The position numbers and the translations under genes are program-made. The notes under the pieces were generated by a model. That model had not been told where the DNA came from. It worked only from the letters and a program-made list of their open reading frames with translations, and did not search any database. Shown one piece after another: positions 2,394 through 21,719 of a stretch of 23,665 nucleotides of DNA. This DNA is from Synechococcus sp. (lineage in GTDB: Bacteria > Cyanobacteriota > Cyanobacteriia > Thermostichales > PCC-7336), in contig JBFRWN010000118.1 of assembly GCA_051439605.1 (NCBI GenBank), positions 1 through 23,665 on the forward strand. The letters are read 5' to 3'. Every line of letters begins with the position of its first letter. The first letter of the stretch is position 1.

Positions 2394-2405
2394 CCCGAAA
2401 CCTCC

Positions 2406-3251: not shown

Positions 3252-4276
3252 GCTTCTACCTCAGCACGGGGATCGATGATGCCGTAAAGGATATCGATCG
3301 CGAGATTGAGAAACACGTACAGCGCCGCCATCGTCAGGACAAATCCCTGGATCGGGGCATAGTCAGAAGTCTCGAGCGCATTCACCGCATAGGATCCAAT
3401 CCCTTCCCAGGCAAACACTTTTTCCACCAAGACATTTGCACCGAGCAAAAAGGAGAACACCACCCCCATCGTGGTGACGATCGGCAGCAAAGCATTGCGA
3501 AAGGCATAGCTAAAAATAATAGTGTGGCGGGGCAAGCCGTTAGCGCGGGCAGTGCGGATGAAGTCGCTGGAGAGAACGCCCAGCATGGAGGCACGGGTGA
3601 CGCGAGCCAATGGGGCGAGGGCGAAGATTCCGAGGGTAAATGCCGGTAATAACAGATGGGCTAAGGCATCGGCGAAGGTACTAAAATTTAGCTCCAGCAA
3701 GCTGTCGATCAAATAAAAGCCGGTAACGAGATCGGGAGGTGGGGTGAATAAATCCAATCGCCCTACTGGCGCGGGCGCCCAGCCAAGCTTGTAATAGAGA
3801 ACGTATTGAAGCAAGAGTCCGGTGAAGAATGTCGGTAGGGAAACTCCAGCAGTGGTCACCGATCGAGCGAAGCGATCGACCCAAGAATTGGCATGCGTTG
3901 CAGCCAAGATTCCTAGCGGGAGGGCAATGGCGATCGCAAACAGCAACCCCAATCCGGTCAGCTCTAAGGAAGCAGGCAGCTTCTCTATTAAGTCTGTCAA
4001 CACCGGCTGTCCGGTCGTTAACGATCGACCGAAATCTCCGCGTAACAGATCTCTCGCGTAAATCCAAAATTGAACCAAGAGACTTTCGTTCAGTCCCAAC
4101 TGCTCGCGGATCTGGTCGATCGCCTCTTGAGTGGCTGCCGGTCCGGCAAAATAGGCCGCCGGATCTCCAGGTAACGCTCGGGTAAGCACAAACGCCACGA
4201 CAATGACGCCCCCCAAGCTGGGAATCGCAGCTAGAAGGCGAGTGGCGATCGTTGTGAGTGGGGATCGTCTGGGCAT
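3248..4276 (-). CDS. ABC transporter permease (OppB/DppB-like)
   Basis: LPGDPA, GDFGRSL, FIRTARANGL, VEKVFAWEGIG and C-terminal DPR. ATGA overlap with the downstream permease. Confidence 0.95.
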   Translation of the reverse strand: MPRRSPLTTIATRLLAAIPSLGGVIVVAFVLTRALPGDPAAYFAGPAATQEAIDQIREQLGLNESLLVQFWIYARDLLRGDFGRSLTTGQPVLTDLIEKLPASLELTGLGLLFAIAIALPLGILAATHANSWVDRFARSVTTAGVSLPTFFTGLLLQYVLYYKLGWAPAPVGRLDLFTPPPDLVTGFYLIDSLLELNFSTFADALAHLLLPAFTLGIFALAPLARVTRASMLGVLSSDFIRTARANGLPRHTIIFSYAFRNALLPIVTTMGVVFSFLLGANVLVEKVFAWEGIGSYAVNALETSDYAPIQGFVLTMAALYVFLNLAIDILYGIIDPRAEVEA

Positions 4277-4300
4277 TGGTAAATAGGAGATGGGGCTGGT

Positions 4301-4349
4301 GGCGATCGCCTACTCTGCTAGCGTCCCAGCAGATTGGACGGCGATCTCC
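4301..4349 (-). terminator. Intercistronic stem-loop just 3' of the substrate-binding protein gene (mRNA stabiliser or partial terminator)
   Basis: GATCGCC 4304-4310 pairs with GGCGATC 4340-4346, and TCTGCT 4314-4319 pairs with AGCAGA 4328-4333. This is a common position for such hairpins in ABC operons. Confidence 0.5.
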
Positions 4350-4355
4350 CCCGTA

Positions 4356-6011: not shown

Positions 6012-6047
6012 TAAACAGTTCTCCAAACAGAATTGATGAGATGATTT

Positions 6048-6461: not shown

Positions 6462-7520
6462 CTAAGTCGAATGCTCGCTACCCTCAGGAACGACAGTTAC
6501 CAAATGATTCTCTTCGTCGATCGCGATCTGAGCCAAACCAAATTGAGCGATCGCCCATGCATTAGTTCTCAAATGAGGGGTCACGCGAGCCACCCGATAC
6601 TGACTGGTCTGGGAACCCAGCGCGGCGGGAAGCAGGAGTTGATCGGCCAAATACGCATCCACGGGCATTCCGCAATTGTGAAACTCTAGCATCTCCTCAA
6701 CGGCCATCTCTGCCACCCGTTCCGCAGGCAGACCTCGACGCCCTAACGCAGAGAACCCGGCCCGGCTGCGTTCGTACTCGGCAGTCAAGAAAATCCCCGT
6801 ACCGGGAGCCCGCCCCCGTTCCCGCTTTGCGTTAACCTGTCCGGGCAGATGGGCCTGTCGCAGCAGGTTCTCAGCCCGACTCGCCATCCGCTGCGGAATG
6901 TGGGCGGGCAGTTCGGTCGAAACCGCGAGCCCTCTAACCTGCTGCAGCGCTCCTCGATCCAGTAAATCCAGATAGCCTACGCTGCTGTTGCCAGCAACCC
7001 GCAATGTCACCTCCCCTCCCCCTTGGGGATACCATCCCCAAGCTCGCAATTCTAGCTCCGCTCGAATGCCTAACTGCGCGATCGCGGGCAGATAGACCTC
7101 TTGGATGTAAGTGACTGGGGGGCTCCAGGACACGTGGGTGCCGCCGCGCAGAGTGACTTGAGATCGCCCCGATGCCAGAGCTAGCGGCATCAGGATCGCC
7201 TGCATAATGAGCGTCACCGAACCAGCCGATCCCCCCTGCCGGGCTTGCGAGACATCAACGGTGTAGTGTCCCGCTTGAGGGGAACCTGCGGGAATGAATT
7301 CCAATGTCATCGAGCCCAGCTCGTCCCCTGCCAGCTGTGCCTGGCAAATATCAGCCGTGGCCCTAACTGACGTTAGATGTTGAGCGGCCAATCCGGGATG
7401 CTTGCGCCCCGCTCGGATGCGAACCACCTTCAGGGGTTGGCCGGTGATGGCAGACAAACTGAGGCAGGTGCGCAAGATTTGGCCGCCACCTTCGCCGTAA
7501 GAACCGTCGATCTGAATCAT
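6462..7520 (-). CDS. rtcA: RNA 3'-terminal phosphate cyclase
   Basis: IDGSYGEGGGQILRT, RAGRKHPGLAAQHL, GGTHV, GWYPQGGG, YLADQLLL and the catalytic-His motif HLRTN. Confidence 0.96.
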   Translation of the reverse strand: MIQIDGSYGEGGGQILRTCLSLSAITGQPLKVVRIRAGRKHPGLAAQHLTSVRATADICQAQLAGDELGSMTLEFIPAGSPQAGHYTVDVSQARQGGSAGSVTLIMQAILMPLALASGRSQVTLRGGTHVSWSPPVTYIQEVYLPAIAQLGIRAELELRAWGWYPQGGGEVTLRVAGNSSVGYLDLLDRGALQQVRGLAVSTELPAHIPQRMASRAENLLRQAHLPGQVNAKRERGRAPGTGIFLTAEYERSRAGFSALGRRGLPAERVAEMAVEEMLEFHNCGMPVDAYLADQLLLPAALGSQTSQYRVARVTPHLRTNAWAIAQFGLAQIAIDEENHLVTVVPEGSEHST

Positions 7521-7617
7521 TTGGATAGGTGCCTGTCGCGATCGAGAGGAACATCCGTTTCTGGGTCGGTCCGCCCAAGTGGGCCACGGCCGTTCAAATT
7601 GAATAGCGCGATACCGT

Positions 7618-8835
7618 TCAATTCTCGCTACCTCGCAAAGTATCGATTAGCGATCTCCAAAATCCTTTGCGCTTTTCGCTGCTATTGTGGCTGGCAGTGG
7701 GTTCTGGCCGAATGACATCACCGGCATGGCCGTTTCCAGATACTGCGGCTGGATGGCGCAGCTGCTGGTAGAGGTCGCGTTGGTAGGGGGTGATCCTTTC
7801 CGGTACGTGTACCCGCAGCTTGAGCAGCAGATCGCCACGGTACTCGCCGCCAAAGTCCGGCAATCCCTTCCCCCTCAGACGCAAGACAGCCTCGGGCTGC
7901 ACTCCTGGTGGAATCGAAACGGAGACGGATTTTTCCAAGGTCGGAACCTCTAGCTGGGTGCCGAGGACGGCATCGGGAACTTCAAGGATTTCCTCTCGCC
8001 AGAGATTGATGCCGCGCCGCTCGAACCGCGGATCGGGGCGCGTGCGAACGACAACATACAGATCCCCCGGCATTCCCATTGGCGCGGGGCTGGGGTATCC
8101 GCGACCTGCTAGACGTAAAACCATCCCCTCTTCCATTCCAACGGGAATGTTGATGCTCAACTCTTCTCCTGTCTCCACCCTTCCCCGACCGTTACAAATG
8201 GGACAGTACTCGGCGATCGTCGTTCCTTGCCCGCGACAGGAGGGACATACCGAAATTTGCTGAACGGTCAGGTTTCCTTCGCGGCGGCTCCTGACTTGCT
8301 GGCCGGTGCCGTTGCAGAGGGGGCAGAGACGAGGTTGAGTGCCCAGTTTCGCGCCCGAACCTCCACACGTCTGACAAGTGGTGGGACGCTTGATGATGAA
8401 CTCCCTTGCTCCTCCCGTCAGCACCATTTCCAGCGGCACTTCCAGATCTACTTCAAGGTTCTCGCCGCGAGGAGGGCCGGCAGGGCGTCGTCGTCTACCG
8501 AAAAAGCGCTCGGCAAACCCCAAGCCGCCCAAGCCAAAGTCAAACCCCTGTCCTCGAAATAGGTCGCCAAAATCAATGTCTCTGAAGAAATCCTCTGGCG
8601 AGGTACCCGCCACGCCAACCCGTCCGCCAGCATCGTATTGAGCCCGCTTTTGCGAGTCCGACAGAACGGCATAGGCTTCTGCTATCTCCTTAAAGCGTTC
8701 CTCTGCTTCAGGAGACGGATTGCGATCGGGATGGTATTGCAGCGCCAGCTTGCGGAAGGCATCCTTAATCGTTTTTGCATCCGCATTGCGAGGTACGCCC
8801 AGACATTCGTAATAGTCACTTTGTGCGTTCGGCAT
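7618..8835 (-). CDS. dnaJ: Type I DnaJ (Hsp40) co-chaperone
   Basis: J domain with HPD, G/F-rich linker, four CxxCxGxG repeats ([32 protein letters not shown]) and C-terminal substrate domains. Probably an accessory paralog because no dnaK or grpE is adjacent. Confidence 0.95.
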
Positions 8836-8912
8836 CGAGGCTGAATCCCTCGAAACGGTAATCGGGCCTGGAATTCAACATACTGTACTCCCCCTAAGGC
8901 TCTCAATCCTCT

Positions 8913-8939
8913 TTAGCGTTCTTCATAGGTGAGTGCCTT
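8913..8939. promoter_or_regulatory. CIRCE-like operator (HrcA site) upstream of dnaJ
   Basis: TTAGCGTTC-N9-GAGTGCCTT against the consensus TTAGCACTC-N9-GAGTGCTAA: 13/18 matches with an exact 9-nt spacer, about 78 nt upstream of the dnaJ ATG. Confidence 0.55.
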
Positions 8940-9120
8940 GAGGGCATCTCGTACATAGCAGTTATAGCTGTCGACATTTCGGTGACAACCCGACAAGGTT
9001 ATGCTGAGTCAGGGTTCACGATAACTAATACGTCCTAAGCAACTTGACGGTCGCTAATACCACCCAGAACCGAACGCTCCTCGATAACATAGCCATAGGG
9101 TATCAATAGCAAAACTCCTT

Positions 9121-11559
9121 ATGAAAACGGGCCAACCGCTCCATCCAGACACTCTGTATTGGTCTTGCAACCCCGATCAGTTTTCATTCGACACAACAGC
9201 TGAGCTACCCGATTTTGAGGGCATGTTGGGGCAAGATCGGGCGGTCGAAGCCGTTCAGTTTGGAACGAACCCCTCTTTAACGGGCTACAACTTATTCGTT
9301 CTGGGGCCCTCCGGCACGGGGCGACACTCCTTTGTCCGACAGTTCATCGAACAAACCGCTGCCGATCGCCCAACTCCGTCTGATTGGTGCTATGTCAATA
9401 ACTTCGAAAACCCCCAACAGCCGATCGCGATCGAGCTGCCGGCAGGGTATGCTGACCAGTTAAGTAAAGATATCCACCAAGTGATGGAGGAAGTCAAAGA
9501 CGTCATCCCCAAAGCGTTCGAGAGCGAGGACTATCAAAATCGGCGAGAGGAGATTGAATTAGAAGCTCAGGAAAAACAGACTCAGGCCTTTGAAGAGGTC
9601 CGGCAACATGCTCTAGAACGAGGCATCGATATTCAAAAAACGGACACGGGATTTATCTTCCAACCTCTCCATAAAGGCAAAATCGCATCCCCAAAAGAAT
9701 ACCAACGCCTACCCGAGGCAGAGCGGGAGCGCTTGAGTCGAGAGAGCGACGAACTGGAACTGGAACTCAAGCGGATGTTGCGGGCTATCCCCAGCATCGT
9801 GCGACAGGTGCGGGACAAGATTCGGCAGCTCGATCGCGATGTCGCCCTCTTTGCCGTGGGCAGTTTGATGGACGAGATCGAGGAAAAATATGCAGCCTTT
9901 CCCAAGGTGAGTCAGTATTTGAACAGCTTGCAGAGAGATGTCATCGACAATATCGAGATCTTTCTCAAACCCCACGAAGAAGATCTGCAATCGGTGATTC
10001 ATTTGCTGAACGGTGAGCCTCTTGCCGAATCAGCAAAATCTAAGCCCACTAAACAGCGGTACGCCGTCAATGTCCTTGTGGATCGCCGTCATTTAAAGGG
10101 GATGCCAGTTGTTTTTGAGGACAGCCCTACATATCCGGCACTGGTGGGTCGAATCGAACATATCTCCCGCATCGGCACTCTGATGACAGACTTCACGTTG
10201 ATTCGGTCGGGGGCCCTTCATCGCGCCAATGGCGGCTATCTGGTTTTAGATGCTCTGAAAGTTCTGACCCATCCATTTGCCTGGGAAGCCCTCAAGCAGG
10301 CTCTGGAGTCTGGAGAAATTCACATCAAATCCCTAGAAGATGCTTACGGTCTTGTCAGCACTGTCTCTTTGGAGCCAGAACCTATCCCGCTTGATGTCAA
10401 AGTGATTTTGATTGGCGATCGCCGCTTGTATTACCTGCTGCAAGCGTACGATCCCGAGTTTGACGAGCTATTCGACATTGCGGCTGATTTTGGCGATCGC
10501 ATGGAGCGCAGTCCGGATAATATTCGCGATCTGGCTCAACTTCTGGGCACTTTAGCCAGAAAGAAGCAATTACTGCCCTTGGACCGCACGGGGGTGGCCC
10601 GGACGATCGAGGAGGGGGCCCGCCATGCGGGAGATGCAGAACGACTCTCCACCCAATTTCGCTATTTGCTAGATATCCTGCGAGAAGCCCATTTTTGGGC
10701 GACAGAAGAGGACAAGGCAGCCATCGATGCCCGAGCGGTGCAGCAGGCGATCGACGCTCGGATTCGCCGCTCCAGTCGAATTCGCGATCGCTATCAAGAG
10801 GAAATCCTGCGGGAGACGATCGCGATCGATACGGAAGGGGAGAAAGTCGGACAGGTTAACGGGTTGTCGGTGATGCCGTTGGGTCAATTTTGGTTTGGGC
10901 ATCCAAATCGCATTACGGCTCGCGTGGCGCTGGGCACCGGTAAAGTCATCGACATCGAACGGGAAGTGGAATTGGGGGGACCGATTCATTCGAAGGGGGT
11001 GCTGATTCTATCGAGCTTTTTAGCGGCCCATTACGTGCGCGATCGCCCGCTCTCTCTATCTGCCAGTCTGGTGTTCGAGCAATCTTATGGCGGGGTGGAA
11101 GGGGACAGTGCGTCTGCGGCTGAATTGTGTGCTCTTCTGTCAGCTCTGTCGGAGCTACCGCTGAAGCAGTCTCTAGCGATTACAGGGTCGGTGAACCAGC
11201 ACGGCATGGTTCAGGCAATTGGGGGGGTGAACGAGAAAGTTGAAGGGTTCTTTGATATCTGTAAGGCGCGGCAATTGAGTGGGAACCAAGGGGTTCTCAT
11301 TCCGGCGGCGAATGTCAAGCATTTAATGTTGCGGCGCGAGGTTGTCGATGCGGTATCGGCAGGTCAGTTCCATATTTATGCGGTTCAAACCATTGATGAA
11401 TGTATGGAGTTACTAACAGGTAAACAGGCAGGCGAACGGGATGCTGAGGGGAATTATCCTGCTGAAACTGTCAACGGGCAGATTTACAAGCATCTGATTG
11501 AGTTTGCAAAACAGCGTCGTTCTTTTGCCCGTCAAACTCAGCGATCGGATGAGTTCTAG
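9121..11559 (+). CDS. Lon-like serine protease, LonC/YcbZ-type (AAA-like domain, coiled-coil insertion, S16 protease domain)
   Basis: GQDRAVEA, degenerate Walker A GPSGTGRHS, DWCYVNNF, GALHRANGGYL, Ser-Lys dyad motifs GDSASAAE and IGGVNEKVEGF. Confidence 0.93.
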   Translation: MKTGQPLHPDTLYWSCNPDQFSFDTTAELPDFEGMLGQDRAVEAVQFGTNPSLTGYNLFVLGPSGTGRHSFVRQFIEQTAADRPTPSDWCYVNNFENPQQPIAIELPAGYADQLSKDIHQVMEEVKDVIPKAFESEDYQNRREEIELEAQEKQTQAFEEVRQHALERGIDIQKTDTGFIFQPLHKGKIASPKEYQRLPEAERERLSRESDELELELKRMLRAIPSIVRQVRDKIRQLDRDVALFAVGSLMDEIEEKYAAFPKVSQYLNSLQRDVIDNIEIFLKPHEEDLQSVIHLLNGEPLAESAKSKPTKQRYAVNVLVDRRHLKGMPVVFEDSPTYPALVGRIEHISRIGTLMTDFTLIRSGALHRANGGYLVLDALKVLTHPFAWEALKQALESGEIHIKSLEDAYGLVSTVSLEPEPIPLDVKVILIGDRRLYYLLQAYDPEFDELFDIAADFGDRMERSPDNIRDLAQLLGTLARKKQLLPLDRTGVARTIEEGARHAGDAERLSTQFRYLLDILREAHFWATEEDKAAIDARAVQQAIDARIRRSSRIRDRYQEEILRETIAIDTEGEKVGQVNGLSVMPLGQFWFGHPNRITARVALGTGKVIDIEREVELGGPIHSKGVLILSSFLAAHYVRDRPLSLSASLVFEQSYGGVEGDSASAAELCALLSALSELPLKQSLAITGSVNQHGMVQAIGGVNEKVEGFFDICKARQLSGNQGVLIPAANVKHLMLRREVVDAVSAGQFHIYAVQTIDECMELLTGKQAGERDAEGNYPAETVNGQIYKHLIEFAKQRRSFARQTQRSDEF

Positions 11560-11743: not shown

Positions 11744-12655
11744 TTACCCTTCAATGTCTACGATTGCCTCTTCCAGAAGCAGATTAAATTCAGTGGGTTG
11801 CTCCAAATGGAGGAAATGCCCCACCCCATACATAATCGCTGCATCAAAATCCGCATACTGCTGATTGATCTCCACCGCAGTCTCCGGAATCATCGGCGGT
11901 AACGCATTCGCATTCACGCAGCGAATCGGCACCTCCACCTGAGACATTGCCGCCGCCGTATCAACACTGGGGAAGTCTCTGGCTAAGGCGATCGCTGCCG
12001 GAGCATAGACCGACTCCCCTTGCTCGGCCACCCAATTCGCTAGTTCACCGTCGCTATCGGGCAAAAACATTTGCTCCATCATCTTGGCACGCTCGCCCAC
12101 AAAGTCAGCCTCAAGCTGAGTGGCCCACTGCTCCCCAACCTCGGGATCCCATTTCATCTCTACATTGTGAAGCGTATCCACACAGGCCACCCCGATCACC
12201 CGATTGGGTAGTAACCGCGCCGCCTCAAGCGACACCGGTCCCCCCATCGAATGACCGATTAAGATAACGCGCTGCAGGTCCAGCTCTTCCACCACCGCCA
12301 ACACGTCCCCGGCGTACCCCACAATTGTCCACGTCTCGCGATCGCGCCCCGATACCCCGTGCCCTGCCAAATCTAGCGAAACCACTCGATATTCGTCCGC
12401 AAACGCATCCAACTGTTCCCGCCAATAGGAGCGATCGCAGGACCAACAATGAATAAACAGTAGCGTGGTGTCCCCCGTCCCCCTGACATCAAAGGCAATC
12501 TCTACCCCATCCGGAGCCAGCACTGTCCCACTCGTCACCCGCGCAGTCTCTTCCCCTCCCGCCAGCGCCACCGAATCCCAACCAGAAACCCAATGGCTAG
12601 CCGGAATCACCCCCAACGCCAGAGCCGTCAGTAAGGGAAACGCAATATTATTCAC
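11744..12655 (-). CDS. Secreted alpha/beta-fold hydrolase
   Basis: Hydrophobic signal-like N-terminus, LLFIHCWS oxyanion region, DLAGHGVS, nucleophile elbow GHSMGG, C-terminal GHFLHLE. GTG start preceded by GGGAGGGAG. Confidence 0.9.
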   Translation of the reverse strand: MNNIAFPLLTALALGVIPASHWVSGWDSVALAGGEETARVTSGTVLAPDGVEIAFDVRGTGDTTLLFIHCWSCDRSYWREQLDAFADEYRVVSLDLAGHGVSGRDRETWTIVGYAGDVLAVVEELDLQRVILIGHSMGGPVSLEAARLLPNRVIGVACVDTLHNVEMKWDPEVGEQWATQLEADFVGERAKMMEQMFLPDSDGELANWVAEQGESVYAPAAIALARDFPSVDTAAAMSQVEVPIRCVNANALPPMIPETAVEINQQYADFDAAIMYGVGHFLHLEQPTEFNLLLEEAIVDIEG

Positions 12656-12776: not shown

Positions 12777-15700
12777 TTAACCCATCAACAACTCAGAAGC
12801 CGTCAAACCAATCAACGATTCCGCGTGCGTCCCCGGCAAATCTGCTGAAGCCTCCCAGAAGAACATCCCCCCCAGTCCCCGATCCTGCACGTAGTCCAGC
12901 TTCGCCCCCAACGACTGCACATCTTCGTAGGTACTGAATACCCCCAACGACTTGTTGTAGACGTAAGGCACTTGAGCCTCATCGTCCCAATAGCGCACGT
13001 AGCCGCTATTGGGGTCGTTCAGCTTGGTATACAAATCGTCGTAGTCAAAGATGCCATTTTCGTAGGTGCCCGGCCCCGCCCCCGTAGCCGCTTGGAACAA
13101 GCCATCGTTGACATCATCCACCCCAGTCCAAGACCGACCGTACAGGGGCGCCCCCAAGACAATATCCTCAGCCTCCACCCCAGCATCCAAATACTGCTGG
13201 ACCGTGGCAGCCACGTTATAGGAATCTGCATACTCGGAGGGGTCGTCGGAACTGGCATACAGCGCCGCCTGGTGGTTGGTGGTGTCCTCCCACGCACCGT
13301 GGTAGTCGTAAGCCATCACGTTAAAGAAGTCGAGATACTGGGACATCCCCGCCAAGTCATAATTGACAATTTTGTCGACTCCGGCCGGGGATGCAATGGT
13401 GAGCTGATAGTCGTTACCGTCTAGGCTCTCCTGCCGATCCAGCTGTTCCCGCAATTCCGCCAACAGTAACGTATAGTTCTGCTTGTCTGCGGGACGATAG
13501 ACATTGCTGGCCAAGCCACCGCTAACCGGATATTCCCAATCGATATCCAGTCCATCGAAGCCGTGTTCCACCATGAAATCGACCGCCGAAATGGCAAATT
13601 TCTCGCGGGAGACATCCGTCAGGGCGATGTCCGAGAAAGCCCCCGACAGAGCCCATCCACCAATGGATAGCATGTTGGTTAAATGGGGATTCTCTGCCTT
13701 CAGGACCCGCAGTTCCGCAAAGTTGCCCGCTTCCCCCGCTTGAGATTGGTCCCAGCTATATTTGCCCCCGAAGGTGGTTTGGGTGGCAGCCCAAGGGTCA
13801 AACTGAGCCACTTCACCGTTTTCGTCCACCTTGGCAAAGGCGTAGAAAATATGGGTCAGGTTATCGGCAGGAATATCCTCCACTTGAAAGTCGCGATCAT
13901 AAATCGCCCACTCGGGATAGTAGGCTCCAACGACGTAATTGGAATTTCCTCCGCTGGGATTGGCATCGTCATTCAGGATGGTCGCCATTCCGCCAGCATC
14001 TCCCAGCGTCGCTTGACTGGCGTTACTGAGGTTGAAGCTGAAGCTTTCGGAACTCTCGTAGAGGGTATCTCCTGCGATCGTCACCGCCACAGTTTGTGAA
14101 GTTTGACCGGGAGCGAAAGTGAGGCTACCGCTTGCGGCACTGTAGTCCTCTCCGGAGATTGCGTTACTATCCTGCGTGTCGTACTCAACCGTAACGGTGT
14201 CCTCGCTAGCGGCGCTGAGGCTGACGGTAAACAGGACGGTGGAGCTGCCGACGTCCCCTTCGGCAAGGCTGACGTCATTCACCGACAGGCTGGGCAACGA
14301 CCCCAGTAATTCGCCGTTAAACCGATAATTGCTAGGCTCGGGTACGGAGCCGCCATTCCAACTGCCGTTGAACCCAAACGAGACAGAGGTGTTGGGGGCA
14401 ATTTGCTCGTTCCAGCCCAAGTCGGAGACAACGTAGCGGCTGCCATCGACACTGACCTGTTCGGCATTCCACATTGAAGTAATCGAGAACGGGCTATCAA
14501 ATCCAAGGGTCCACCCCTTGATCGCCGTATCCCCTTGGTTCGTAATGGTGATGCTGCCCCCAAAGCCCCCCTGCCACTGGCTATCCACCTGAAAGCTGAT
14601 GGACACAGTGCCGTTGTTTGTTATCGGAGATTCAACGGGGGGAGTCACCGGATCTGGCGCATCGTCGTTGAGTAGGGTACCGAGGCCCAGGTTATCGGCA
14701 ATCGCGGCTCCACTGGCCCCGCTCAGGGAGAGACTCAAGGTTTCCTCCCCTTCAATCTCTTTGTCGCCAATAACGCTGACGTCGATCGTTTTGCGGGTTT
14801 CCCCTGGTGCGAAGGTGAGGGTCCCAACCTGGCCGAGGAAGTCCTCCCCGGCGATTGCCGAACCATCCGAAGTGGAAAAGTTGACCTGGACCATCTCGTC
14901 GCTGGCTGCGGATAGCGAAACTTCGAAGGCCAGATTGCCCGTACCGTCATCCCCCTCCCAACTGCTGGCATCACTGACAGAAATCGCGGGAAGTGTTGCG
15001 GCAGGAGGAGCCTCGTCCAAAGACTGGTAGTAGTCCTGCACTTGGCTGATCCACCAGTATCCATCGGTGGGTGGGTCCCCCACGCCATCTGTACTGACTC
15101 CCACCCCTGCACCAAACAGCACGTTGGTAACGCCTGCCGCCTGCACGTCATCCATGTTGGGCGCCCAGGTAATGCGGTTGCCCTCCACGATGACCCCAGG
15201 GTCCTGCCACTGGTTTTGGCTGAAGTAAGCCAGGCGTTCGGGATCTGCTTCGATAAAGGTATCCCCCAGGAAGAAGGTACCCGCCGAGTCTTCGTACTGG
15301 GTGGGTGTGTTGTCGAGATCGTCGAAGCGATTGGAGGGATCGTAGGGGTTCTCCGCTTGGCTGCCGTTGATGTGTCCTACCGGGATTTGCCACAGGGTGA
15401 CCGGCTTGTCAGTGCTGTTGTGCAGCGTCTCCACAAACAGCAGGTAGTTTTTCCACAAATCGTGGTTCCAGAACCAACTGGAATCCTGAGGATTTTCAGC
15501 CGCTGAAGCGCTAACCCCCGCTCCATCGAGACCGTATTTATCGATGCTGATGAAATCCGCACCGTAACTCAGCACGCCCGCTGCTTTGTAGTAGTCGGCG
15601 ATCGCCGTCGCTTCCTCCACGATCGCCTGCTTGCCCGCTTCAAACCCCAGCGTTTCTGTGAGGTGAACGATCCCTTTACCGGGAATCCCCACATTGGTAA

Positions 15701-17624
15701 AGCCTCCAGCGGGACTGGCCCAGAGGTTAAACTGCCAGCCAAATTCCACATTGGGGGCGTATTTGGAGATGGTGTAGTTGATGGCCTGCACCAACCCCTG
15801 CACAGAGTCGTCGAAGATCGGATCTTCCGTTCGGCTCAACACTCCTGCATCGTAAATGGCGGAGGTTTGGGCAGAGATTTCCTGGGGTCGCGTGCCAGAA
15901 TTCTGAGCCATGTACCCCAAGAAATCGGGCTCCAGAATCATGCTGACCTTCTCATCTCCAGCAATACTGCTAATTTCATCCAGGGCATATTTCAAATCTT
16001 CGAAATAGCTCTGCATATAGGATTGGCTTTGGACATGTTGCAAGTCGGTGGTATAGCTTTCGCCCCCATCCGGGATGTTGTACCAAACAAACGTCGGGGT
16101 CATGCCCAGCTTCAGACTTTCCCGCAGGTAAGACTGCAGGCGATCGCCGTCCCCCCAAGTGCGCCAGTTATTGGGATAAGCGGGATCGGGTTTAAAGGGG
16201 TTATTGAGGGGGCCTCCGTTCAAGTAGATGTACCGCGAGTCCACCCGCTTGTTGGCCAGCCCGTCGCCAAACTCTTGCCAAAACCCCAAATCGGCGGCGG
16301 AATCTTCGCTGACCGAACCGATGGTGACGTCGTCGGGATTGTCCGGTAGAGACCCATCTGGATTGCGAACCCGTATCCCCACAAAGCGCTGTTCTCCAGT
16401 AGCGATGTTCTCGATTCGCAAAGAGGCCCGTCCGCCCTCCTGGCTGGCGATCGCAATCTCGCTGGTGCCGTCTGAGAGGGGGATGATGCTGGCTTGGATC
16501 AGGTCTGGATTGTTGGTGGCGACTCGCAGGTTGCTGGCCTCCCCCTCAAAGTTGAGGACTAGCGTGGATTCCCCCGGATCGAGGGTGATTTGCAGCGCCT
16601 CTCCACCCTCGTCGAATCCAACCAGTTGAAAGGAATTCGTCGTTGGGGGGATGACTCCGCTTCCGCCACTGGAGGATCGATATAGAACGGTCTTACCAAG
16701 GGTGAGTTGGTCAGCGGTCACCCCTTCAATTGCAATCGTTTGGTTGTTGCTGGGAATTGAAATGATAACGTCACCGCTGCCCGTATCCTGCACGACGAAT
16801 TCAGCACTGCTAGAAAACCAGAAGGCAGTCAGGTCGATGACATCTTCAGAGACATCAAAATTGCGGATGACAGAATGTCTGCCCCACTTCCAGTCGAAGC
16901 GAAAGGTGTCTGGTTGACTCGTTGCCCCAATCAGCACATCCTCGATGCCAGTCGGAGGGAGTGGGGCAGTGGCATCATCATCGACGATCTTGCCAACCCC
17001 CTGTCCGTCGGCAATAGCTGCTCCATCAGGGTTGCTGAGGTTGAGTAAGACTCTTTCATCCGCTTCCACTTGACGATCCCCCACAATCGGCACGTGCACC
17101 GTCATGCTGGTTTCTCCGGGCGCAAAGATGAGGGTGCCAGATTGAGGATGATAGTCTTCCCCCGCGAATGCGGTGTCGTTGGCGGTCGCGAGATCCACCG
17201 TGACGGTTTCGCTAGCTGCTTGGCTGAGGGTGACGGTGTAGGTCAGGTAAGTGACCCCGTCGCTGCCCTCGGCGATCGCCGCATCTGCCACCGATATCGT
17301 AGGAGTGCCGCTGGGGTCTAAAGAACTGCCATTGAGAAGATACCCGCTGGGTTCGGAAATCCCGTTGCTGGAGGGGACAGCGTTGAATCCGATGGAGATG
17401 GTTTCTCCGGAGGACAAATCGGGGTTGTAATCGGCAAATCGAATCCTGTAGCGATCGCCTTTACGACTGACGATTTCTGCATTCCAAATACTGGTAATTT
17501 CAAAATCTGCTGTGAACTCTAGCGTCCAGTTTTTCAGCAGTGAATCCCCTTCGTTAGTAAGGATAATTTCCCCCTCAAAGCCAGTTCCCCAATCTTGAAT
17601 CACGGTAAAGTTGACAGCGCTCAT
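12777..17624 (-). CDS. Large multi-module chitinase: CBM2 - Calx-beta - small beta domain - unassigned glycosidase-like domain - Calx-beta - CBM2 - Calx-beta - GH18
   Basis: The GH18 has SIGGW, intact FDGLDIDWEYP (13527-13559), MAYDYHG and MFFWE. CBM2 motifs are DWGTGF...WTLEF...IWNA...IGFN and QWQGGF...WTLGF...MWNA...FGFN. Three Calx-beta repeats carry TA.AGEDY/F...GTL.FAPGET...GD...E..E. ATG at 17624 (AGGA upstream) is preferred over the GTG at 17651. Confidence 0.92.
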   Translation of the reverse strand: MSAVNFTVIQDWGTGFEGEIILTNEGDSLLKNWTLEFTADFEITSIWNAEIVSRKGDRYRIRFADYNPDLSSGETISIGFNAVPSSNGISEPSGYLLNGSSLDPSGTPTISVADAAIAEGSDGVTYLTYTVTLSQAASETVTVDLATANDTAFAGEDYHPQSGTLIFAPGETSMTVHVPIVGDRQVEADERVLLNLSNPDGAAIADGQGVGKIVDDDATAPLPPTGIEDVLIGATSQPDTFRFDWKWGRHSVIRNFDVSEDVIDLTAFWFSSSAEFVVQDTGSGDVIISIPSNNQTIAIEGVTADQLTLGKTVLYRSSSGGSGVIPPTTNSFQLVGFDEGGEALQITLDPGESTLVLNFEGEASNLRVATNNPDLIQASIIPLSDGTSEIAIASQEGGRASLRIENIATGEQRFVGIRVRNPDGSLPDNPDDVTIGSVSEDSAADLGFWQEFGDGLANKRVDSRYIYLNGGPLNNPFKPDPAYPNNWRTWGDGDRLQSYLRESLKLGMTPTFVWYNIPDGGESYTTDLQHVQSQSYMQSYFEDLKYALDEISSIAGDEKVSMILEPDFLGYMAQNSGTRPQEISAQTSAIYDAGVLSRTEDPIFDDSVQGLVQAINYTISKYAPNVEFGWQFNLWASPAGGFTNVGIPGKGIVHLTETLGFEAGKQAIVEEATAIADYYKAAGVLSYGADFISIDKYGLDGAGVSASAAENPQDSSWFWNHDLWKNYLLFVETLHNSTDKPVTLWQIPVGHINGSQAENPYDPSNRFDDLDNTPTQYEDSAGTFFLGDTFIEADPERLAYFSQNQWQDPGVIVEGNRITWAPNMDDVQAAGVTNVLFGAGVGVSTDGVGDPPTDGYWWISQVQDYYQSLDEAPPAATLPAISVSDASSWEGDDGTGNLAFEVSLSAASDEMVQVNFSTSDGSAIAGEDFLGQVGTLTFAPGETRKTIDVSVIGDKEIEGEETLSLSLSGASGAAIADNLGLGTLLNDDAPDPVTPPVESPITNNGTVSISFQVDSQWQGGFGGSITITNQGDTAIKGWTLGFDSPFSITSMWNAEQVSVDGSRYVVSDLGWNEQIAPNTSVSFGFNGSWNGGSVPEPSNYRFNGELLGSLPSLSVNDVSLAEGDVGSSTVLFTVSLSAASEDTVTVEYDTQDSNAISGEDYSAASGSLTFAPGQTSQTVAVTIAGDTLYESSESFSFNLSNASQATLGDAGGMATILNDDANPSGGNSNYVVGAYYPEWAIYDRDFQVEDIPADNLTHIFYAFAKVDENGEVAQFDPWAATQTTFGGKYSWDQSQAGEAGNFAELRVLKAENPHLTNMLSIGGWALSGAFSDIALTDVSREKFAISAVDFMVEHGFDGLDIDWEYPVSGGLASNVYRPADKQNYTLLLAELREQLDRQESLDGNDYQLTIASPAGVDKIVNYDLAGMSQYLDFFNVMAYDYHGAWEDTTNHQAALYASSDDPSEYADSYNVAATVQQYLDAGVEAEDIVLGAPLYGRSWTGVDDVNDGLFQAATGAGPGTYENGIFDYDDLYTKLNDPNSGYVRYWDDEAQVPYVYNKSLGVFSTYEDVQSLGAKLDYVQDRGLGGMFFWEASADLPGTHAESLIGLTASELLMG

Positions 17625-17738
17625 CCCAAAATTCCTTAACCTGAAAACCACTGTTCCTGGGTAAAAATGAAGGGTGTCATTTCCCCTAGGAACTCCACTT
17701 AACTGGAATCGGGATAGCGTTGTCGGCCGGTTTGAATC

Positions 17739-17772
17739 GGTTAGATTAGGTTAGCGTAGGTGGCATAGGTTA
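17739..17772. promoter_or_regulatory. Four phased direct repeats in the divergent chitinase/regulator intergenic region (candidate operator)
   Basis: GGTTAGATTA GGTTAGCGTA GGTGGCATA GGTTA, with periods 10, 10 and 9 nt, ending 9 nt before the ATG at 17782. Confidence 0.55.
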
Positions 17773-17781
17773 CTTTGCTCC

Positions 17782-19641
17782 ATGGCCCAGCAACCGTTCG
17801 GAAACTCAGAGGCAATTCAGTTAATTGCTGAACTCGTCCACGGGGTGCGCAGTCAGGACAGTAGAAGGCGAAATAAACACTTAACAGACCGAGAAATCAC
17901 CGTTCTCAATTGGGTTTTAGAGGGGCGGTCGTATTCGCAAATTGCGGAAAAACTGTCGATCGCATTTGACAAAGTCTACGACAACAATTCGATCAAAAGC
18001 TTGATGTACAAAGTCATTACCGAGCTGAAGGCAGCCTTCCGTTCCGCTGGCTTATCGGACGAGATTAACAAGCGAAATCTCAAATCATCCTTAGAACGCT
18101 ACCGCAGAAAACAGCAAGCACAGCAAGTGTTCCAGCACCGCTCCTCTGCACAGTCATGCATCTCCCTAGACAATGCCAGTCGGGCCACGATAGACAGGCA
18201 CCTCAACTCCTGGAGTGCTTCCGGCTGCGTCTACAGCGCCCCCAGCGCCATCTTTTTTTGTGGAGAACATGCGGTTGTCTACGGCCATCCCGCGATCTAT
18301 TTCCCTCTCCCCATGCGGCTGTACGTCCAGGTTCAAGCCGATCGCTCCCGCCAGGCTGCGATTATCGATGAATTTATTACTCGAAATCCCAGCACCGGCC
18401 AAATTCAAAACGTCCAGCATATCGACGACTACGGCCGTCGACTGGCAAAAAATCACGAAGACCATCTCAACGATTTATACCGCTCTACACTCAGTCCATT
18501 TCTCAAACCCATAGAGGGGACGACTCGCTACGGATTGACGTTAAAGGTGATGAGCGAATTTCCCATTGCCTGCGGCTTAGATTCTTCGGGAGCCCTAGCG
18601 GCTGCTTTGGCAACTGCACTGGCGGATCGATATTTAGACATCGATCGCTTCGCGGCCCATTTTCAGATATCGAGCGATCGGGATGCTGTCAGTGACTCGA
18701 CAGTGGCAACCCAGGTAATCGCTTGGGCGATTGAAAACTGCTTTCACAACAATCGGTCCAGCGGTATTGGGGCGCTCGCCGCCCTGAATGGCAGAACAGG
18801 TCGACATCCTTTGGTGTATCTCTCCTCTAAGCGATCGCAGTTACCGTATCGTTTAGCTGCCGGGTGGCAGCCAGTGGATGCAGGATCTGGGGACAGTGCC
18901 ATTCGCAATCTCTCCAACATCAAAACCATCGTGTTCGATCCAGCCGATCGCAAAGACGATCAACTCTCGTTTCCCCCTCCCCCTTCCTTTAATCTTTCTG
19001 CGATCTATTGCGGCAACATCAGCAAAACCGAACAAATGCTGGCAGATAGTTCCCTCCGTCGCCACGGACTGTTGGATGGAGAGACCAAATCCTATTTGAA
19101 CCGGCAATTAACCACCCAACTACCATCAGATGAAATTCAGCGATCAATTTACGTCCACAGTCACGAAATTGTCCGGGAAATCCAATTCAACGACCAACTT
19201 TCTCTCCACGCAAAAAGCCAGCAAATGGATATCGCCAACCGGGAATTCATGGCCGATTCCCTCGGGATTATTTCAACAGCGGCCATCGATGCCATCCTCA
19301 CCGATTGGCAAGCCCTCCCCAGCTTGATGAGCACCTATCAGTCGTTGTTGTTCAGCTACGGAGCATCGGACATGAGGAGCGATTCTCTGATGATGAAGCT
19401 CTCGCTAGCCGCCCTCGAACATCAGATTCATCAAGGAAGTGGCAAGCCAGCCATGGGCATCAAGGTAACGGGTTCGGGAGGAGGAGGAGACTTTATTGCC
19501 TTCAGCCTATTACCTCCTGCAATCCACCAAGAGATCGTTCAGAGCCACCTCGATCGCGCATCTAGCCTGCATTTTGATTCCACGCAGCTACCGGCGGAAC
19601 AATGGGAACGCCCCGTAGAGGGGGCAAGGCGCGAGTGCTAG
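17782..19641 (+). CDS. HTH-GHMP (mevalonate-kinase-like) fusion protein; probable ligand-sensing regulator or pseudokinase
   Basis: The N-terminus has an HTH (HLTDREITVLNWVLEGRSYSQIAEKL...INKRNLKSSLER). All three GHMP motifs follow in order: SAPSAIFFCGEHAVVYG (aa 152-168), PIACGLDSSGA (aa 261-271) and KVTGSGGGG (aa 561-569). Confidence 0.85.
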   Translation: MAQQPFGNSEAIQLIAELVHGVRSQDSRRRNKHLTDREITVLNWVLEGRSYSQIAEKLSIAFDKVYDNNSIKSLMYKVITELKAAFRSAGLSDEINKRNLKSSLERYRRKQQAQQVFQHRSSAQSCISLDNASRATIDRHLNSWSASGCVYSAPSAIFFCGEHAVVYGHPAIYFPLPMRLYVQVQADRSRQAAIIDEFITRNPSTGQIQNVQHIDDYGRRLAKNHEDHLNDLYRSTLSPFLKPIEGTTRYGLTLKVMSEFPIACGLDSSGALAAALATALADRYLDIDRFAAHFQISSDRDAVSDSTVATQVIAWAIENCFHNNRSSGIGALAALNGRTGRHPLVYLSSKRSQLPYRLAAGWQPVDAGSGDSAIRNLSNIKTIVFDPADRKDDQLSFPPPPSFNLSAIYCGNISKTEQMLADSSLRRHGLLDGETKSYLNRQLTTQLPSDEIQRSIYVHSHEIVREIQFNDQLSLHAKSQQMDIANREFMADSLGIISTAAIDAILTDWQALPSLMSTYQSLLFSYGASDMRSDSLMMKLSLAALEHQIHQGSGKPAMGIKVTGSGGGGDFIAFSLLPPAIHQEIVQSHLDRASSLHFDSTQLPAEQWERPVEGARREC

Positions 19642-19657: not shown

Positions 19658-19694
19658 TCTGAAAACCTGAACTCACTCCTGAACAAACCTGAAC
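19658..19694 (+). promoter_or_regulatory. Tandem CCTGAAC repeats upstream of the DUF4278-like gene (candidate operator)
   Basis: TCTGAAA at 19658 and CCTGAAC at 19666, 19678 and 19688 (spacings 8, 12, 10). Confidence 0.5.
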
Positions 19695-19787
19695 TTTTCG
19701 GGATTTTTTCTGCTACGAGTTTTCGCGACACTGAGGTCATCGAAGCGCCGGGCACAGCCCTTTCAGAAGCACACGAGGACCCAAACC

Positions 19788-20024
19788 ATGACGTCTCAAC
19801 TGACCTACCGCGGCCAATCCTTCGAATTCACTGCCCACAAGACTGTCGATACAACCGAGCTGGCAACCTTCCGCGGACGCGAGACTTCAGTTTCGCGGCT
19901 TGCTTCACAGCCGGTGAAGCTGCCTGCGGACCTGCAGTTCTTCGGTCGGCATACCGCTGGAGAAAAAGCAGCTGTTAGAAACCAACAAGCGATCGCTGTA
20001 TTTGGCCCCCTTGTATCTGCGTAG
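19788..20024 (+). CDS. Small cyanobacterial protein, DUF4278-like
   Basis: 78 aa, starts MTSQLTYRGQSF with related repeats ATFRG and LQFFGR. The L.YRG start is the DUF4278 hallmark. GAGGA SD upstream. Confidence 0.75.
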   Translation: MTSQLTYRGQSFEFTAHKTVDTTELATFRGRETSVSRLASQPVKLPADLQFFGRHTAGEKAAVRNQQAIAVFGPLVSA

Positions 20025-20354: not shown

Positions 20355-21719
20355 TTACGCGCCCACCACGCAATCACCCCCCTCGCTTTTAGCCTGCTGC
20401 AGGTTACGATCGCATCCCTCTAAAAATTCCTCTAACCCAACATCGGGGGTCGGCCGCGCGGTTGTCATTCCGATGCTGAAGGTTAACCCAGGCAACTCGC
20501 CAGGCATCGGTAAATTTTTCACCTGTTTCAAAAGCGTTTGGGCAGTCTGTTCCGTTTCGGAGGCAACCTTTTGGGGGAGAACGATGGCCAAGGTGAGGGT
20601 GCCGTAGCGACCCACTAAATCATCCACTCCTTGCACCGTCTGTTTGACCAGTTCGGCAATTTGAGACAGGCAGCGATCGCCCATTTCGTGATGGCCGTCC
20701 GGACCGTAGAAATTGAAATGGTCCACCTGACACAGCATCAGGGTCAGCGGTGTTTGGGTTTGCATCGCCTGCTGCCAGCATTCCAGCAAATAGGCATCAA
20801 ATCGGCGGCGGGTGGCCACCTGCGTCAACTCATCGAGGGCCGCCAAACGTTGGAGCTCGTGAATGGCTTGCTGAAGCCTTGCATTTTGCTCTTTGAGCTG
20901 CCGCTGCAGCTGTTGAATCTTGAGCTGATTTTCCACCCGAGCCAGAACCTCAACCACCTTGAAGGGCTTGGAGATGTAATCGCTTCCCCCTGCCGAAAAG
21001 GCTTTGACTTTATCCCAGGCTTCATCCAAAGCACTAACAAAAATGACGGGAATATCCCGAGTCCTTGGCTCGGCCTTGAGCTGCTGACAGACGGTATAGC
21101 CGTCCATGTCAGGCATATTGATATCCAACAAAATCAAATCTGGATGCACTAACGTAACCGCTTGTAAGGCCACTGTGCCATTAATGGCTTGTTGGACTTC
21201 GTACCCCTGTTCTTCAAGCAAATCTGTCAGCAACCGGAGGTTTTTCGGGCGATCGTCCACGAGTAAGATGTTGGCTTTTGCGATCGAAGTGGGTGCGGGT
21301 AGATGGGTCGTAAGGGGTGGGGGCAATGCTGTTACGATCGGCACTTCAGGCATGCCGTTGGTCGGTTGAACGGGATTGGCGCTAGTGTTTGCTCGGGACA
21401 GCGATCCGTTGCGCATCTGTTGCTCGAGCATGGAGCGAACATTTAATTTGGTGACTTTTCGATCCAGTGCCTGAGAAATAATTTGCCAAAGTTTGGGAGC
21501 CACATCTTGCTTGACGTACTTGGCGGAGTAGCCGCACTCTTCTGCCAGTTGGTCGTAGGTTTTACGCTCCCCCTGTAAAGCGGAAATCAAGATACGGCGC
21601 TGCAGTTCGCTACAGTAGGTGTCTGTTTTTTCGACGATTAGCGTTTCTGCGAACTCTAAAATACCGTCAGTTTCACCCATAAAGATCGCACCTATATCAT
21701 TGGATCCAGCCATGTCCAT
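20355..21719 (-). CDS. Response regulator: N-terminal HTH, receiver domain, degenerate GGDEF domain
   Basis: HTH (ELQRRILISALQGERKTYDQLAEECGYS..YVKQDVAPKLWQIIS..L..KVTK.N), intact REC (ILLVDD, LLDINMPDMDG, FVSA, ISKP), coiled coil, then a GGDEF fold with RYGTLTL in place of RYGGEEF. The start could be any of the first three Met codons. Confidence 0.9.
   Translation of the reverse strand: MDMAGSNDIGAIFMGETDGILEFAETLIVEKTDTYCSELQRRILISALQGERKTYDQLAEECGYSAKYVKQDVAPKLWQIISQALDRKVTKLNVRSMLEQQMRNGSLSRANTSANPVQPTNGMPEVPIVTALPPPLTTHLPAPTSIAKANILLVDDRPKNLRLLTDLLEEQGYEVQQAINGTVALQAVTLVHPDLILLDINMPDMDGYTVCQQLKAEPRTRDIPVIFVSALDEAWDKVKAFSAGGSDYISKPFKVVEVLARVENQLKIQQLQRQLKEQNARLQQAIHELQRLAALDELTQVATRRRFDAYLLECWQQAMQTQTPLTLMLCQVDHFNFYGPDGHHEMGDRCLSQIAELVKQTVQGVDDLVGRYGTLTLAIVLPQKVASETEQTAQTLLKQVKNLPMPGELPGLTFSIGMTTARPTPDVGLEEFLEGCDRNLQQAKSEGGDCVVGA

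Follow-up and report, generated by a model that had tools for sequence, protein, structure and literature searches.

The question raised by contig JBFRWN010000118.1 of Synechococcus sp. (assembly GCA_051439605.1) is what a domain of the GHMP kinase type does when it is fused to an N-terminal helix-turn-helix (HTH). We analyzed positions 1 to 23,665 of this contig (the window), and the gene in question is a forward-strand open reading frame (ORF) in its right-hand part (Table 1). A preliminary description of this DNA had interpreted the encoded protein as a pseudokinase, which senses a chitin-derived sugar and regulates a divergently transcribed chitinase gene. We found that the HTH-GHMP architecture proposed there is real and that it is also conserved among relatives. 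We favor a reading in which the protein is a dimeric one-component regulator, the remodeled GHMP domain of which would sense ATP together with a ligand, and we give this reading about an even chance. The ORF 17782-19641 has the same start methionine as the homologues P0001 and P0002 and it is a single-copy gene in its own genome (4.9 Mb, 99.98% complete). In Pfam, residues 250-328 matched GHMP_kinases_N with 25.6 bits (cut-off 22.3) and residues 33-61 matched GerE (LuxR HTH) with 26.3 bits (cut-off 23.5), the latter match covering only positions 2-30 of the 57 profile positions. The GHMP motif patterns PxxxxxxGEH, GLxSSxA, and KxTGxGxGG were located at residues 154-163, 265-271, and 561-569, respectively. 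All motifs quoted in the preliminary description (APSAIFFCGEH at residues 153-163, the phosphate-binding loop, and the segment 318-330) were present at the residues given there.

An AlphaFold2 model of the protein, which was calculated from an alignment of 118 sequences, reached a predicted local distance difference test value (pLDDT) of 90.7 and a predicted template modeling score of 0.81. When residues 146-619 were compared with known structures by VIA, we obtained matches with 8tfo_B (Z 29.3, root-mean-square deviation 3.3, 316 aligned residues), with human galactokinase (1wuu_B, Z 28.4), with the mevalonate kinase of M. mazei (6mdf_A, Z 27.0), and with GalNAc kinase (2a2c, Z 25.3). Foldseek yielded a best E-value of 8.7e-15 for the model, and the structural matches found by both programs were GHMP structures only. 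In the predicted structure, the GHMP fold is complete and it is closest to mevalonate kinases and galactokinases. The comparison with these two enzymes suggested in the preliminary description has thus returned the GHMP fold at Z-values of 27.0-29.3. At the sequence level, archaeal mevalonate kinases (8teb, 1kkh) were the top matches in the PDB, and hhalign aligned the profile of 21 family members (A4) with that of 19 true mevalonate kinases (A3) at a probability of 100 and an E-value of 1.6e-40. The latter alignment also revealed two family-specific insertions ahead of motif III, where the preliminary description had noticed a long insertion. An unusually long GHMP protein (498 aa) deposited as 'AbGHMP' (PDB 9ulx/9uly) gave a marginal sequence match only (E 0.19-0.54), and our literature search retrieved no paper naming this PDB entry.

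For the residue counts, we used an alignment of the window protein with 117 other proteins (A2), from which fragments shorter than 300 aa, the cadherin-like P0122, and some lower-ranked matches were left out. The counts refer to the 22 close-family members with a residue at the respective column, to 76 wider relatives (367-960 aa), and to the 19 true mevalonate kinases. Here, we found that the lysine of the APGK motif, the column of which is occupied by Ala156 in the window protein, is present in 16/19 mevalonate kinases and in none of the close (0/22) or wider (0/76) relatives. Similarly, the aspartate of the SGxD motif was found in 18/19 mevalonate kinases, in 0/22 close-family members, and in 0/76 wider relatives. 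Glycine occupies this column (Gly330) in 22/22 close and 55/76 wider relatives. At the position of Asp267 in motif II, all 19 mevalonate kinases carry glycine, whereas asparagine or aspartate is present in 21/22 close and 53/76 wider relatives. Since hhalign sets Ala156 against the lysine of APGK and Gly330 against the aspartate of SGxD, the alignment made by eye in the preliminary description was correct. Its three substitutions (motif I lacking the lysine, an altered P-loop, glycine for the catalytic aspartate) are supported by the hhalign columns and by the clade counts, and the profile-profile alignment restored neither the lysine nor the aspartate. As both residues are absent from all 98 clade members, their loss is a feature of the entire clade and does not reflect the decay of a single gene.

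A second group of residues has been retained. Glu162, Ser269, Glu318, Thr416, and Lys561 occupy positions which we take to be the MgATP-binding positions of mevalonate kinase. Glu162 was found in 21/22 close relatives, 66/76 wider relatives, and 19/19 mevalonate kinases, and the corresponding numbers were 22/22, 70/76, and 17/19 for Ser269, 20/22, 74/76, and 17/19 for Glu318 (Glu or Asp), 20/22, 68/76, and 19/19 for Thr416, and 22/22, 73/76, and 19/19 for Lys561. Judged from the sequences, this conservation makes nucleotide binding possible and even a phosphotransfer that is independent of a catalytic base. Arg351 and Asp570 are conserved and clade-specific. Asp570 is present in 20/22 close and 58/76 wider relatives, and 12 of the 19 mevalonate kinases have a cysteine at this position.

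The group of proteins sharing these features is rare. A word-indexed search retrieved only six close homologues. When a HMMER profile was run against 1.84 billion representative sequences, 22 clusters were obtained at E <1e-30, 192 at E <1e-10 (a set that also contains the true mevalonate kinases), and 1977 at E <1e-3, and at least 98 of the best 150 clusters (50% identity) belong to the clade. In a FastTree phylogeny (403 columns), the 99 non-kinase rows were separated from the 19 mevalonate kinases with a support of 0.77, and the close family (23 rows) was monophyletic with a support of 0.97. Among 401 cyanobacterial genomes sampled across the phylum, three including that of the window organism matched profile A1 at E <=1e-8; the matches elsewhere were a truncated form (G312) and adjacent short ORFs (G076). 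With P0009 as query, 5/144 genomes of one family gave a match, and three of these five carry a conserved truncated form. The latter protein (346-353 aa) combines an effector-associated domain (EAD4) with a GHMP-like domain that is reduced to its N-terminal half (to about query residue 326), and it is encoded in three genomes of one genus (L043, 1450-2508, forward strand; L044, 1474-2532, reverse strand; L038, 9724-10761, reverse strand), in two cases adjoining an SRP54 gene. Either a pseudogene or a short but functional protein is conceivable. When the window domain, P0054, and P0050 were used as tblastn queries, the plasmid collection gave no match, and the viral contigs scanned with profile A5 contained no relative. 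In the ESM Atlas, only ordinary mevalonate kinase clusters were obtained. Apparent relatives from a contig scan (L004-L015, L023-L035) were rejected as clade members; where the frame was complete, it encodes a GHMP protein from archaea or bacteria with a length of about 300-340 aa, and the remaining frames were short or cut. In the databases, clade members are labeled as 'helix-turn-helix domain-containing', 'hypothetical', or 'mevalonate kinase'.

The GHMP-like domain has been combined with different partners within the clade. An N-terminus of the LuxR-like type is present in the window protein and in P0001, P0002, and P0004, which are listed with PF26355 (a precomputed assignment). XRE-type HTH domains (HTH_3/HTH_26) are located at the N-terminus of P0005, P0008, L002, L003, L018, and L021, and a weak match with a CI-repressor-like N-terminal HTH was seen in L017 (E 8e-4). 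The search for further HTH-GHMP proteins, which had been recommended in the preliminary description, has thus shown LuxR-like, XRE, and CI-like DNA-binding domains on the same GHMP-like domain. Other partners are EAD4 at the N-terminus of P0009, P0010, L022, and L043, and CHAT in P0011. In the wider clade we found PNP_UDP_1 (P0052, P0065, P0066, P0073), HD-CE (P0032), SEFIR (P0071), and a methyltransferase (P0056). Nitrilase-like tails matching the PADLOC models for DRT and CARF-nitrilase systems are present in P0026, P0031, and P0054, and P0058 gave a weak CN_hydrolase match. In most members of 595-633 aa, the tail had no annotation. The most frequent arrangement in the wider clade places a domain of about 110 aa behind the GHMP-like domain, at the C-terminus (P0096, P0038, P0047, and others; 26 clusters).

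This C-terminal domain, which belongs to relatives of 600-625 aa and not to the window protein, was detected with a hidden Markov model (HMM) of the tail in 26 of the top 150 representative clusters, and its AlphaFold2 model had a pLDDT of 81.6. All 50 rows listed by VIA for this model were DNA-binding domains of the OmpR/PhoB/CadC/ToxR type (Z 5.2-7.3, 85-115 aligned residues). The ten top rows had 91-97 aligned residues, and many of the targets consist of a DNA-binding domain alone (about 100 residues). Foldseek gave a best E-value of 0.01 (BaeR, SaeR). In several relatives, further tails appeared OmpR-like by eye only. DNA-binding domains are therefore the commonest partners of the GHMP-like domain, and they fall into no fewer than three, probably four, unrelated types. 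Such a variety of unrelated DNA-binding domains on one and the same domain fits a one-component sensor.

When two copies of the GHMP-like domain were modeled together using alignment A4, we obtained a homodimer score of 0.83, and the best control reached 0.00. For calibration, 20 of 30 proteins with a structure solved as a pair attained a mark of 0.83, compared with 1 of 23 proteins with a single-chain structure. The runs showed a contact agreement of at least 88% and a partner pLDDT of at least 84. The predicted interface consists mostly of residues 428-556 (residues 289-417 in domain numbering), which form helices at positions 433-446, 454-468, 475-506, and 509-526 in the AlphaFold2 model. 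According to hhalign, part of this region has no counterpart in mevalonate kinases.

In the N-terminal HTH, the model places helices at residues 36-46, 51-62, and 68-88, and the region of the recognition helix is divergent and carries an insertion. We found this HTH to be related to the N-terminal HTH of a STAND NTPase from Coleofasciculus, which is encoded in locus L002 (E 7e-6), and to that of the neighboring REC-GGDEF protein (E 0.003). Between the HTHs of these two proteins, the relationship is clear (E 1e-13). With a local HMM, which was built on five sequences including the window protein, three further ORFs were detected in the same genome, the REC-GGDEF neighbor and two located elsewhere. 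One of the latter (G000 C10:3531-5999, forward strand, 823 aa) continues with an NB-ARC-like NTPase and TPR repeats and the other (G000 C81:73651-75117, forward strand, 489 aa) with a P-loop ATPase, these downstream domains being assigned by eye. The REC-GGDEF neighbor (20355-21719, reverse strand) resembles PleD and has an additional N-terminal HTH of about 100 aa, a type which is shared with cyanobacterial STAND NTPases. The coordinates of the features described so far are summarized in Table 1.

Table 1. Features of the HTH-GHMP gene and its immediate surroundings (positions in the window; residues refer to the encoded protein)
Feature	Position	Strand	Remarks
Intergenic region, 130 nt, shared with the divergent chitinase gene	17652..17781	.	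no significant repeats
Whole gene, HTH and GHMP-like protein	17782..19641	+	619 aa, ATG start, stop codon included
LuxR/sigma-70-region-4-like HTH, about residues 27-112	17860..18117	+	GerE match; insertion between helices 2 and 3
Flexible linker, residues 118-126	18133..18159	+	sole segment with pLDDT <50
Complete GHMP-fold domain, residues 146-619	18217..19638	+	VIA, Foldseek, hhalign; descended from mevalonate kinase
Motif I, YSAPSAIFFCGEHAV, residues 151-165	18232..18276	+	Ala156 in place of the mevalonate kinase Lys
Motif II, phosphate-binding loop PIACGLDSSGA, residues 261-271	18562..18594	+	Asp267 where kinases have Gly
ENCFHNNRSSGIG, residues 318-330	18733..18771	+	Gly330 in place of the catalytic Asp; Glu318 and His322 retained
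Helical region with family-specific insertion, residues 428-556	19063..19449	+	main predicted homodimer interface
Motif III, KVTGSGGGGD, residues 561-570	19462..19491	+	Lys561 kept; Asp570 clade-specific
Terminator-like hairpin	19688..19702	+	47 nt past the stop codon; consensus match only (3 found, 3.0 expected)

Our preferred mechanism can be outlined as follows. The C-terminal domain, which derives from mevalonate kinase, would be an enzyme that has been remodeled into a sensor or a switch. As the residues at the presumed MgATP contacts are kept, it may still bind MgATP, and having neither the lysine nor the aspartate that activate the acceptor hydroxyl, it would have lost catalysis. Arg338, His342, Arg351, and Asp570 may line a clade-specific ligand pocket. 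Occupancy by ligand and ATP would alter the dimer and thereby the activity of the N-terminal LuxR-like HTH, the putative output. In this rare and patchy clade, one sensor module may have been reused with interchangeable outputs, either DNA-binding domains or effectors and adaptors of conflict systems. The fused partner would set the output and since this is a LuxR-like HTH in the window protein, the latter would act as dimeric one-component regulator. The sensor and regulator architecture suggested in the preliminary description has held up, with clade-wide loss of lysine and aspartate and with swapped DNA-binding domains.

Several observations weigh against this mechanism. The loss of lysine and aspartate does not prove that phosphotransfer is lost, since homoserine kinase works without a catalytic base. 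Dimers of mevalonate kinase and galactokinase have already been solved, so that the outcome of the dimer prediction may in part mirror known structures. The GerE match spans half of the profile and the HTH contains an insertion. Moreover, HTHs of this type also head STAND NTPases, an ATPase, and a REC-GGDEF protein, and there they may serve as adaptors rather than as DNA binders. The assignment of the C-terminal tail to the winged-helix domains rests on middling Z-scores, and the tail sequence matched Pfam Trans_reg_C in one of ten cases at E 0.08 and in hhalign with a probability of 1% (E 0.054). No gene neighbor is common to all loci, and the neighbors differ between subfamilies. Finally, partners such as EAD4, CHAT, PNP, nitrilase-like, HD-CE, and SEFIR domains show that the GHMP-like domain also occurs outside transcription factors and could itself act as an effector.

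A broader version of the regulator reading, which we regard as possible but on balance doubtful, extends the sensor function to the clade as a whole. Here, the GHMP domain lacking the lysine and the aspartate and carrying GL[N/D]SSGA and SSGxG signatures would be an unrecognized sensor module for ATP and a ligand, which plays a role similar to that of CARF and SAVED domains and is wired in bacteria and archaea to DNA-binding domains, as in the window gene, or to immune-type outputs (nitrilase, PNP, CHAT protease, SEFIR, HD-CE, or the adaptor EAD4). If this proposal were true, the ligand would be a new signaling metabolite or a metabolite derived from infection.

The fusions with EAD4, CHAT, PNP, nitrilase-like, and SEFIR domains, together with STAND neighbors, make a role in biological conflict a serious rival, although we consider it unlikely. 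According to this alternative, the protein is part of an NTP-dependent defense system, in which the GHMP-like domain acts as effector or co-effector, for instance by phosphorylating or sequestering a nucleotide-derived metabolite, and the N-terminal HTH, like EAD4 in the relatives, tethers the protein to a STAND NTPase carrying the same HTH. The HD-CE fusion and the patchy distribution (3/401 and 5/144 genomes) are in line with such a function. STAND or NACHT NTPases are encoded divergently upstream of the relatives in L002, L003, and L016, the STAND protein of L002 has the same HTH type, and the genome of the window organism encodes, apart from the HTH-NB-ARC-like-TPR protein described above, two EAD4 ORFs elsewhere. 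A Shedu SduA_C gene is found in L018 (4929-6137, reverse strand), 0.4 kb past the gene pair encoding the XRE-GHMP-like protein and an α/β hydrolase. In Kaur et al. (2020; PMC7159879), EAD4 is described as mainly recruiting effectors and HTH domains are listed as components of effector modules. The window itself does not speak for a conflict system. Its 23.7 kb contain no STAND, EAD, vWA, MoxR, or known defense gene, the protein has no EAD match in Pfam, and when it was compared with PADLOC-DB v2, which holds no model for the GHMP-like domain, none of the families matched. Furthermore, DNA-binding domains prevail among the partners, and no relatives were found in the plasmid collection or on viral contigs. 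STAND proteins with a LuxR HTH may also be plain transcription factors, as exemplified by MalT. If the module serves both regulation and immunity, the regulator reading and the conflict reading overlap.

Alternatively, the protein might be bifunctional, combining an active kinase, which employs a base-independent mechanism and a new substrate, with an HTH that couples catalysis to transcription. The strong conservation of the presumed MgATP positions and of the three GHMP motifs is compatible with this idea, and the invariant clade-specific polar residues Arg338, His342, Arg351, Asp386, and Asp570 suggest a defined pocket. Neighbors that handle esters also recur. An α/β hydrolase is encoded directly downstream in L002, L018, L020, and L021 (in L019, an ORF of equal size occupies this place), and these hydrolases resemble 3-oxoadipate enol-lactonase but score below the family cut-off. 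An acyltransferase of the PapA_C/condensation type (421-422 aa) is encoded convergently at a distance of 10-61 nt in L022 (2746-4014, reverse strand) and L047 (11039-12304, reverse strand). The GHMP-like protein of L022 carries EAD4, and the N-terminus of the L047 protein has no Pfam match. However, both residues acting on the acceptor in mevalonate kinase are gone in 98/98 clade members, the glycine of motif II is swapped for asparagine or aspartate, the window offers no metabolic operon context, and the many unrelated output fusions are typical for a sensor rather than for a pathway enzyme. Taken together, we consider a bifunctional enzyme quite unlikely. An α/β hydrolase gene is also present in the window (11744-12655), but it was rejected as conserved synteny since it shares only a generic likeness with the hydrolase following the XRE-type relatives (28% identity over 76 residues).

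The chitin hypothesis of the preliminary description, according to which the divergent GH18 chitinase is under the control of a Gal3-like pseudokinase that responds to a chitin-derived sugar, fared less well and now appears very improbable. The gene arrangement is indeed divergent, with 130 nt separating the HTH-GHMP gene from that of the 1624-aa chitinase, the fold is as near to galactokinase and GalNAc kinase as to mevalonate kinase (Z 28.4 for 1wuu_B, Z 25.3 for 2a2c), and an Opp/Dpp-type ABC importer is encoded at a distance of 7-17 kb. However, when we searched 14 related loci (113.7 kb) with the window chitinase by tblastn, no match was obtained although the positive control worked, so that neither the co-occurrence with GH18 genes nor the proposed ligand and target gene were borne out. 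In L016, which is the nearest among the relatives with retrieved flanking DNA (55% identity, same LuxR-like N-terminus), the divergent upstream gene encodes a NACHT NTPase instead of a chitinase. The adjacent repeats, through which the regulation had been envisaged, were at chance level. AGGTTAG occurs twice in the window, 1.6 copies are expected and 45 of 100 shuffled sequences attain two copies, and a repeat search detected short two-copy families only. By sequence, the closest proteins are mevalonate kinases and not sugar kinases. The hypothesis therefore rests on the adjacency of two genes in one genome.

The best sequence and profile matches of the protein would suggest a plain mevalonate kinase to which an HTH has been added, but this reading is contradicted by the score for the NCBIfam equivalog TIGR00549 (E 4e-21, but 75.7 bits at a curated cut-off of 163.05), by the absence of the lysine and the aspartate, and by the genome of the organism, in which DXR is present and HMG-CoA reductase (PF00368) was not found. 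The control genomes gave matches with PF00368, and the search of the mevalonate pathway was confined to this enzyme. Since DXR is present and HMG-CoA reductase was undetected, the window protein does not appear to be an enzyme of the mevalonate pathway, and the genome fits the earlier premise that cyanobacteria employ the methylerythritol phosphate pathway rather than mevalonate.

The immediate neighbors of the gene are the chitinase gene, a small DUF4278 ORF, the HTH-REC-GGDEF protein, and a Cache-HAMP sensor protein. The chitinase (12777-17651, reverse strand) is of the secreted type and comprises two CBM2 and three Calx-beta domains, with a GH18 domain at the C-terminus (residues 1243-1604). 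Its central part of about 600 residues (roughly 330-1000) has no Pfam match, and with the chitinase as query this was the only GH18 region found in the genome. The consensus match to a terminator-like hairpin behind the HTH-GHMP gene hints at a monocistronic gene, and a promoter scan gave no match beating shuffled sequence. Directly downstream, past the hairpin, follows the DUF4278 ORF (19788-20024, forward strand), which encodes 78 aa and matches its family below the cut-off (E 2.4e-4). On the other side of the chitinase gene, the ABC importer is encoded by five genes (370-6026, reverse strand), two for ATPases, two for permeases, and one for a family-5 binding protein bearing a twin-arginine translocation signal. 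The region between the transporter and the chitinase (6462-11559) encodes the RNA 3'-phosphate cyclase RtcA, DnaJ, and a LonC/LonB-like AAA protease (812 aa).

The protein group is rare and apparently undescribed. Among the matches listed in our literature search, which did not cover subscription journals, nothing relevant was found on GHMP-based HTH regulators or pseudokinases, and no paper in this coverage joined 'GHMP' with 'effector-associated domain' or 'anti-phage'. The statement of the preliminary description that no HTH-GHMP regulator family has been described agrees with this outcome. One of the papers retrieved (PMC12419801) names GHMP kinase as pathway enzyme only. Recognizing the clade would end the annotation of its members as mevalonate kinases in organisms that do not have the pathway, and the discovery of the ligand could reveal a new small-molecule signal. 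The clade combines a consistent loss of catalytic residues with a repertoire of swapped outputs, which overlaps with that of prokaryotic immunity.

How does the protein compare with known systems? With mevalonate kinase (TIGR00549; 8tfo, 6mde, 1kkh) it shares the two-domain GHMP fold (Z 27-29), motifs I-III, and the GEH, Ser-Ser, Glu/His, Thr, and Lys-x-Thr-Gly residues. Unlike this enzyme, it has lost the lysine of APGK and the aspartate of SGxD, carries aspartate (asparagine in relatives) instead of glycine in motif II, contains two insertions and about 140 additional N-terminal residues including the HTH, and scores under the family cut-off. The EAD-coupled conflict systems (Kaur et al. 2020; PMC7159879) resemble those relatives that carry EAD4 and those that are encoded beside STAND NTPases, whereas the window protein has no EAD and its locus no core NTPase. 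The term 'GHMP' does not occur in the main text of this paper. The CARF and SAVED sensors of prokaryotic immunity are similar in architecture only. Here too, a sensor-like domain is joined to a DNA-binding domain or to an effector of the nitrilase, protease, PNP, HD, or TIR-like type, and Csa3 is a combination of CARF with a winged HTH, but fold and ancestry are unrelated and neither a cyclic nucleotide synthase nor a CRISPR context was seen.

Yeast Gal3p (3v2u, 3v5r) is the closest parallel in concept to the mechanism that we favor. It is a non-catalytic sensor of galactose and ATP with galactokinase as its ancestor, it lacks a DNA-binding domain, and it exerts its effect through binding to Gal80. 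As may be the case for the window protein, a GHMP fold is used for signaling, the catalytic machinery is lost, and nucleotide binding is kept. The ancestry from mevalonate kinase and the fused output domain distinguish the window protein from Gal3p, and the relation is one of analogy and not of orthology; the Gal3 chains gave weak sequence matches with the wider clade (E 0.006-0.007). The ROK repressors NagC and Mlc are one-component regulators with an N-terminal HTH and a non-catalytic sensor domain derived from a kinase. They share with the window protein the fusion of an HTH to a kinase-derived sensor, but their sensor has the ASKHA (actin-like) fold and not the GHMP fold, and there were no ROK models among the listed Pfam and NCBIfam matches of the window protein. 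The protein group resembles a small-molecule sensor of a new type. It would be a further one-component regulator in which the sensor arose from a disabled enzyme, a general design represented by the ROK repressors and, outside bacteria, by Gal3p.

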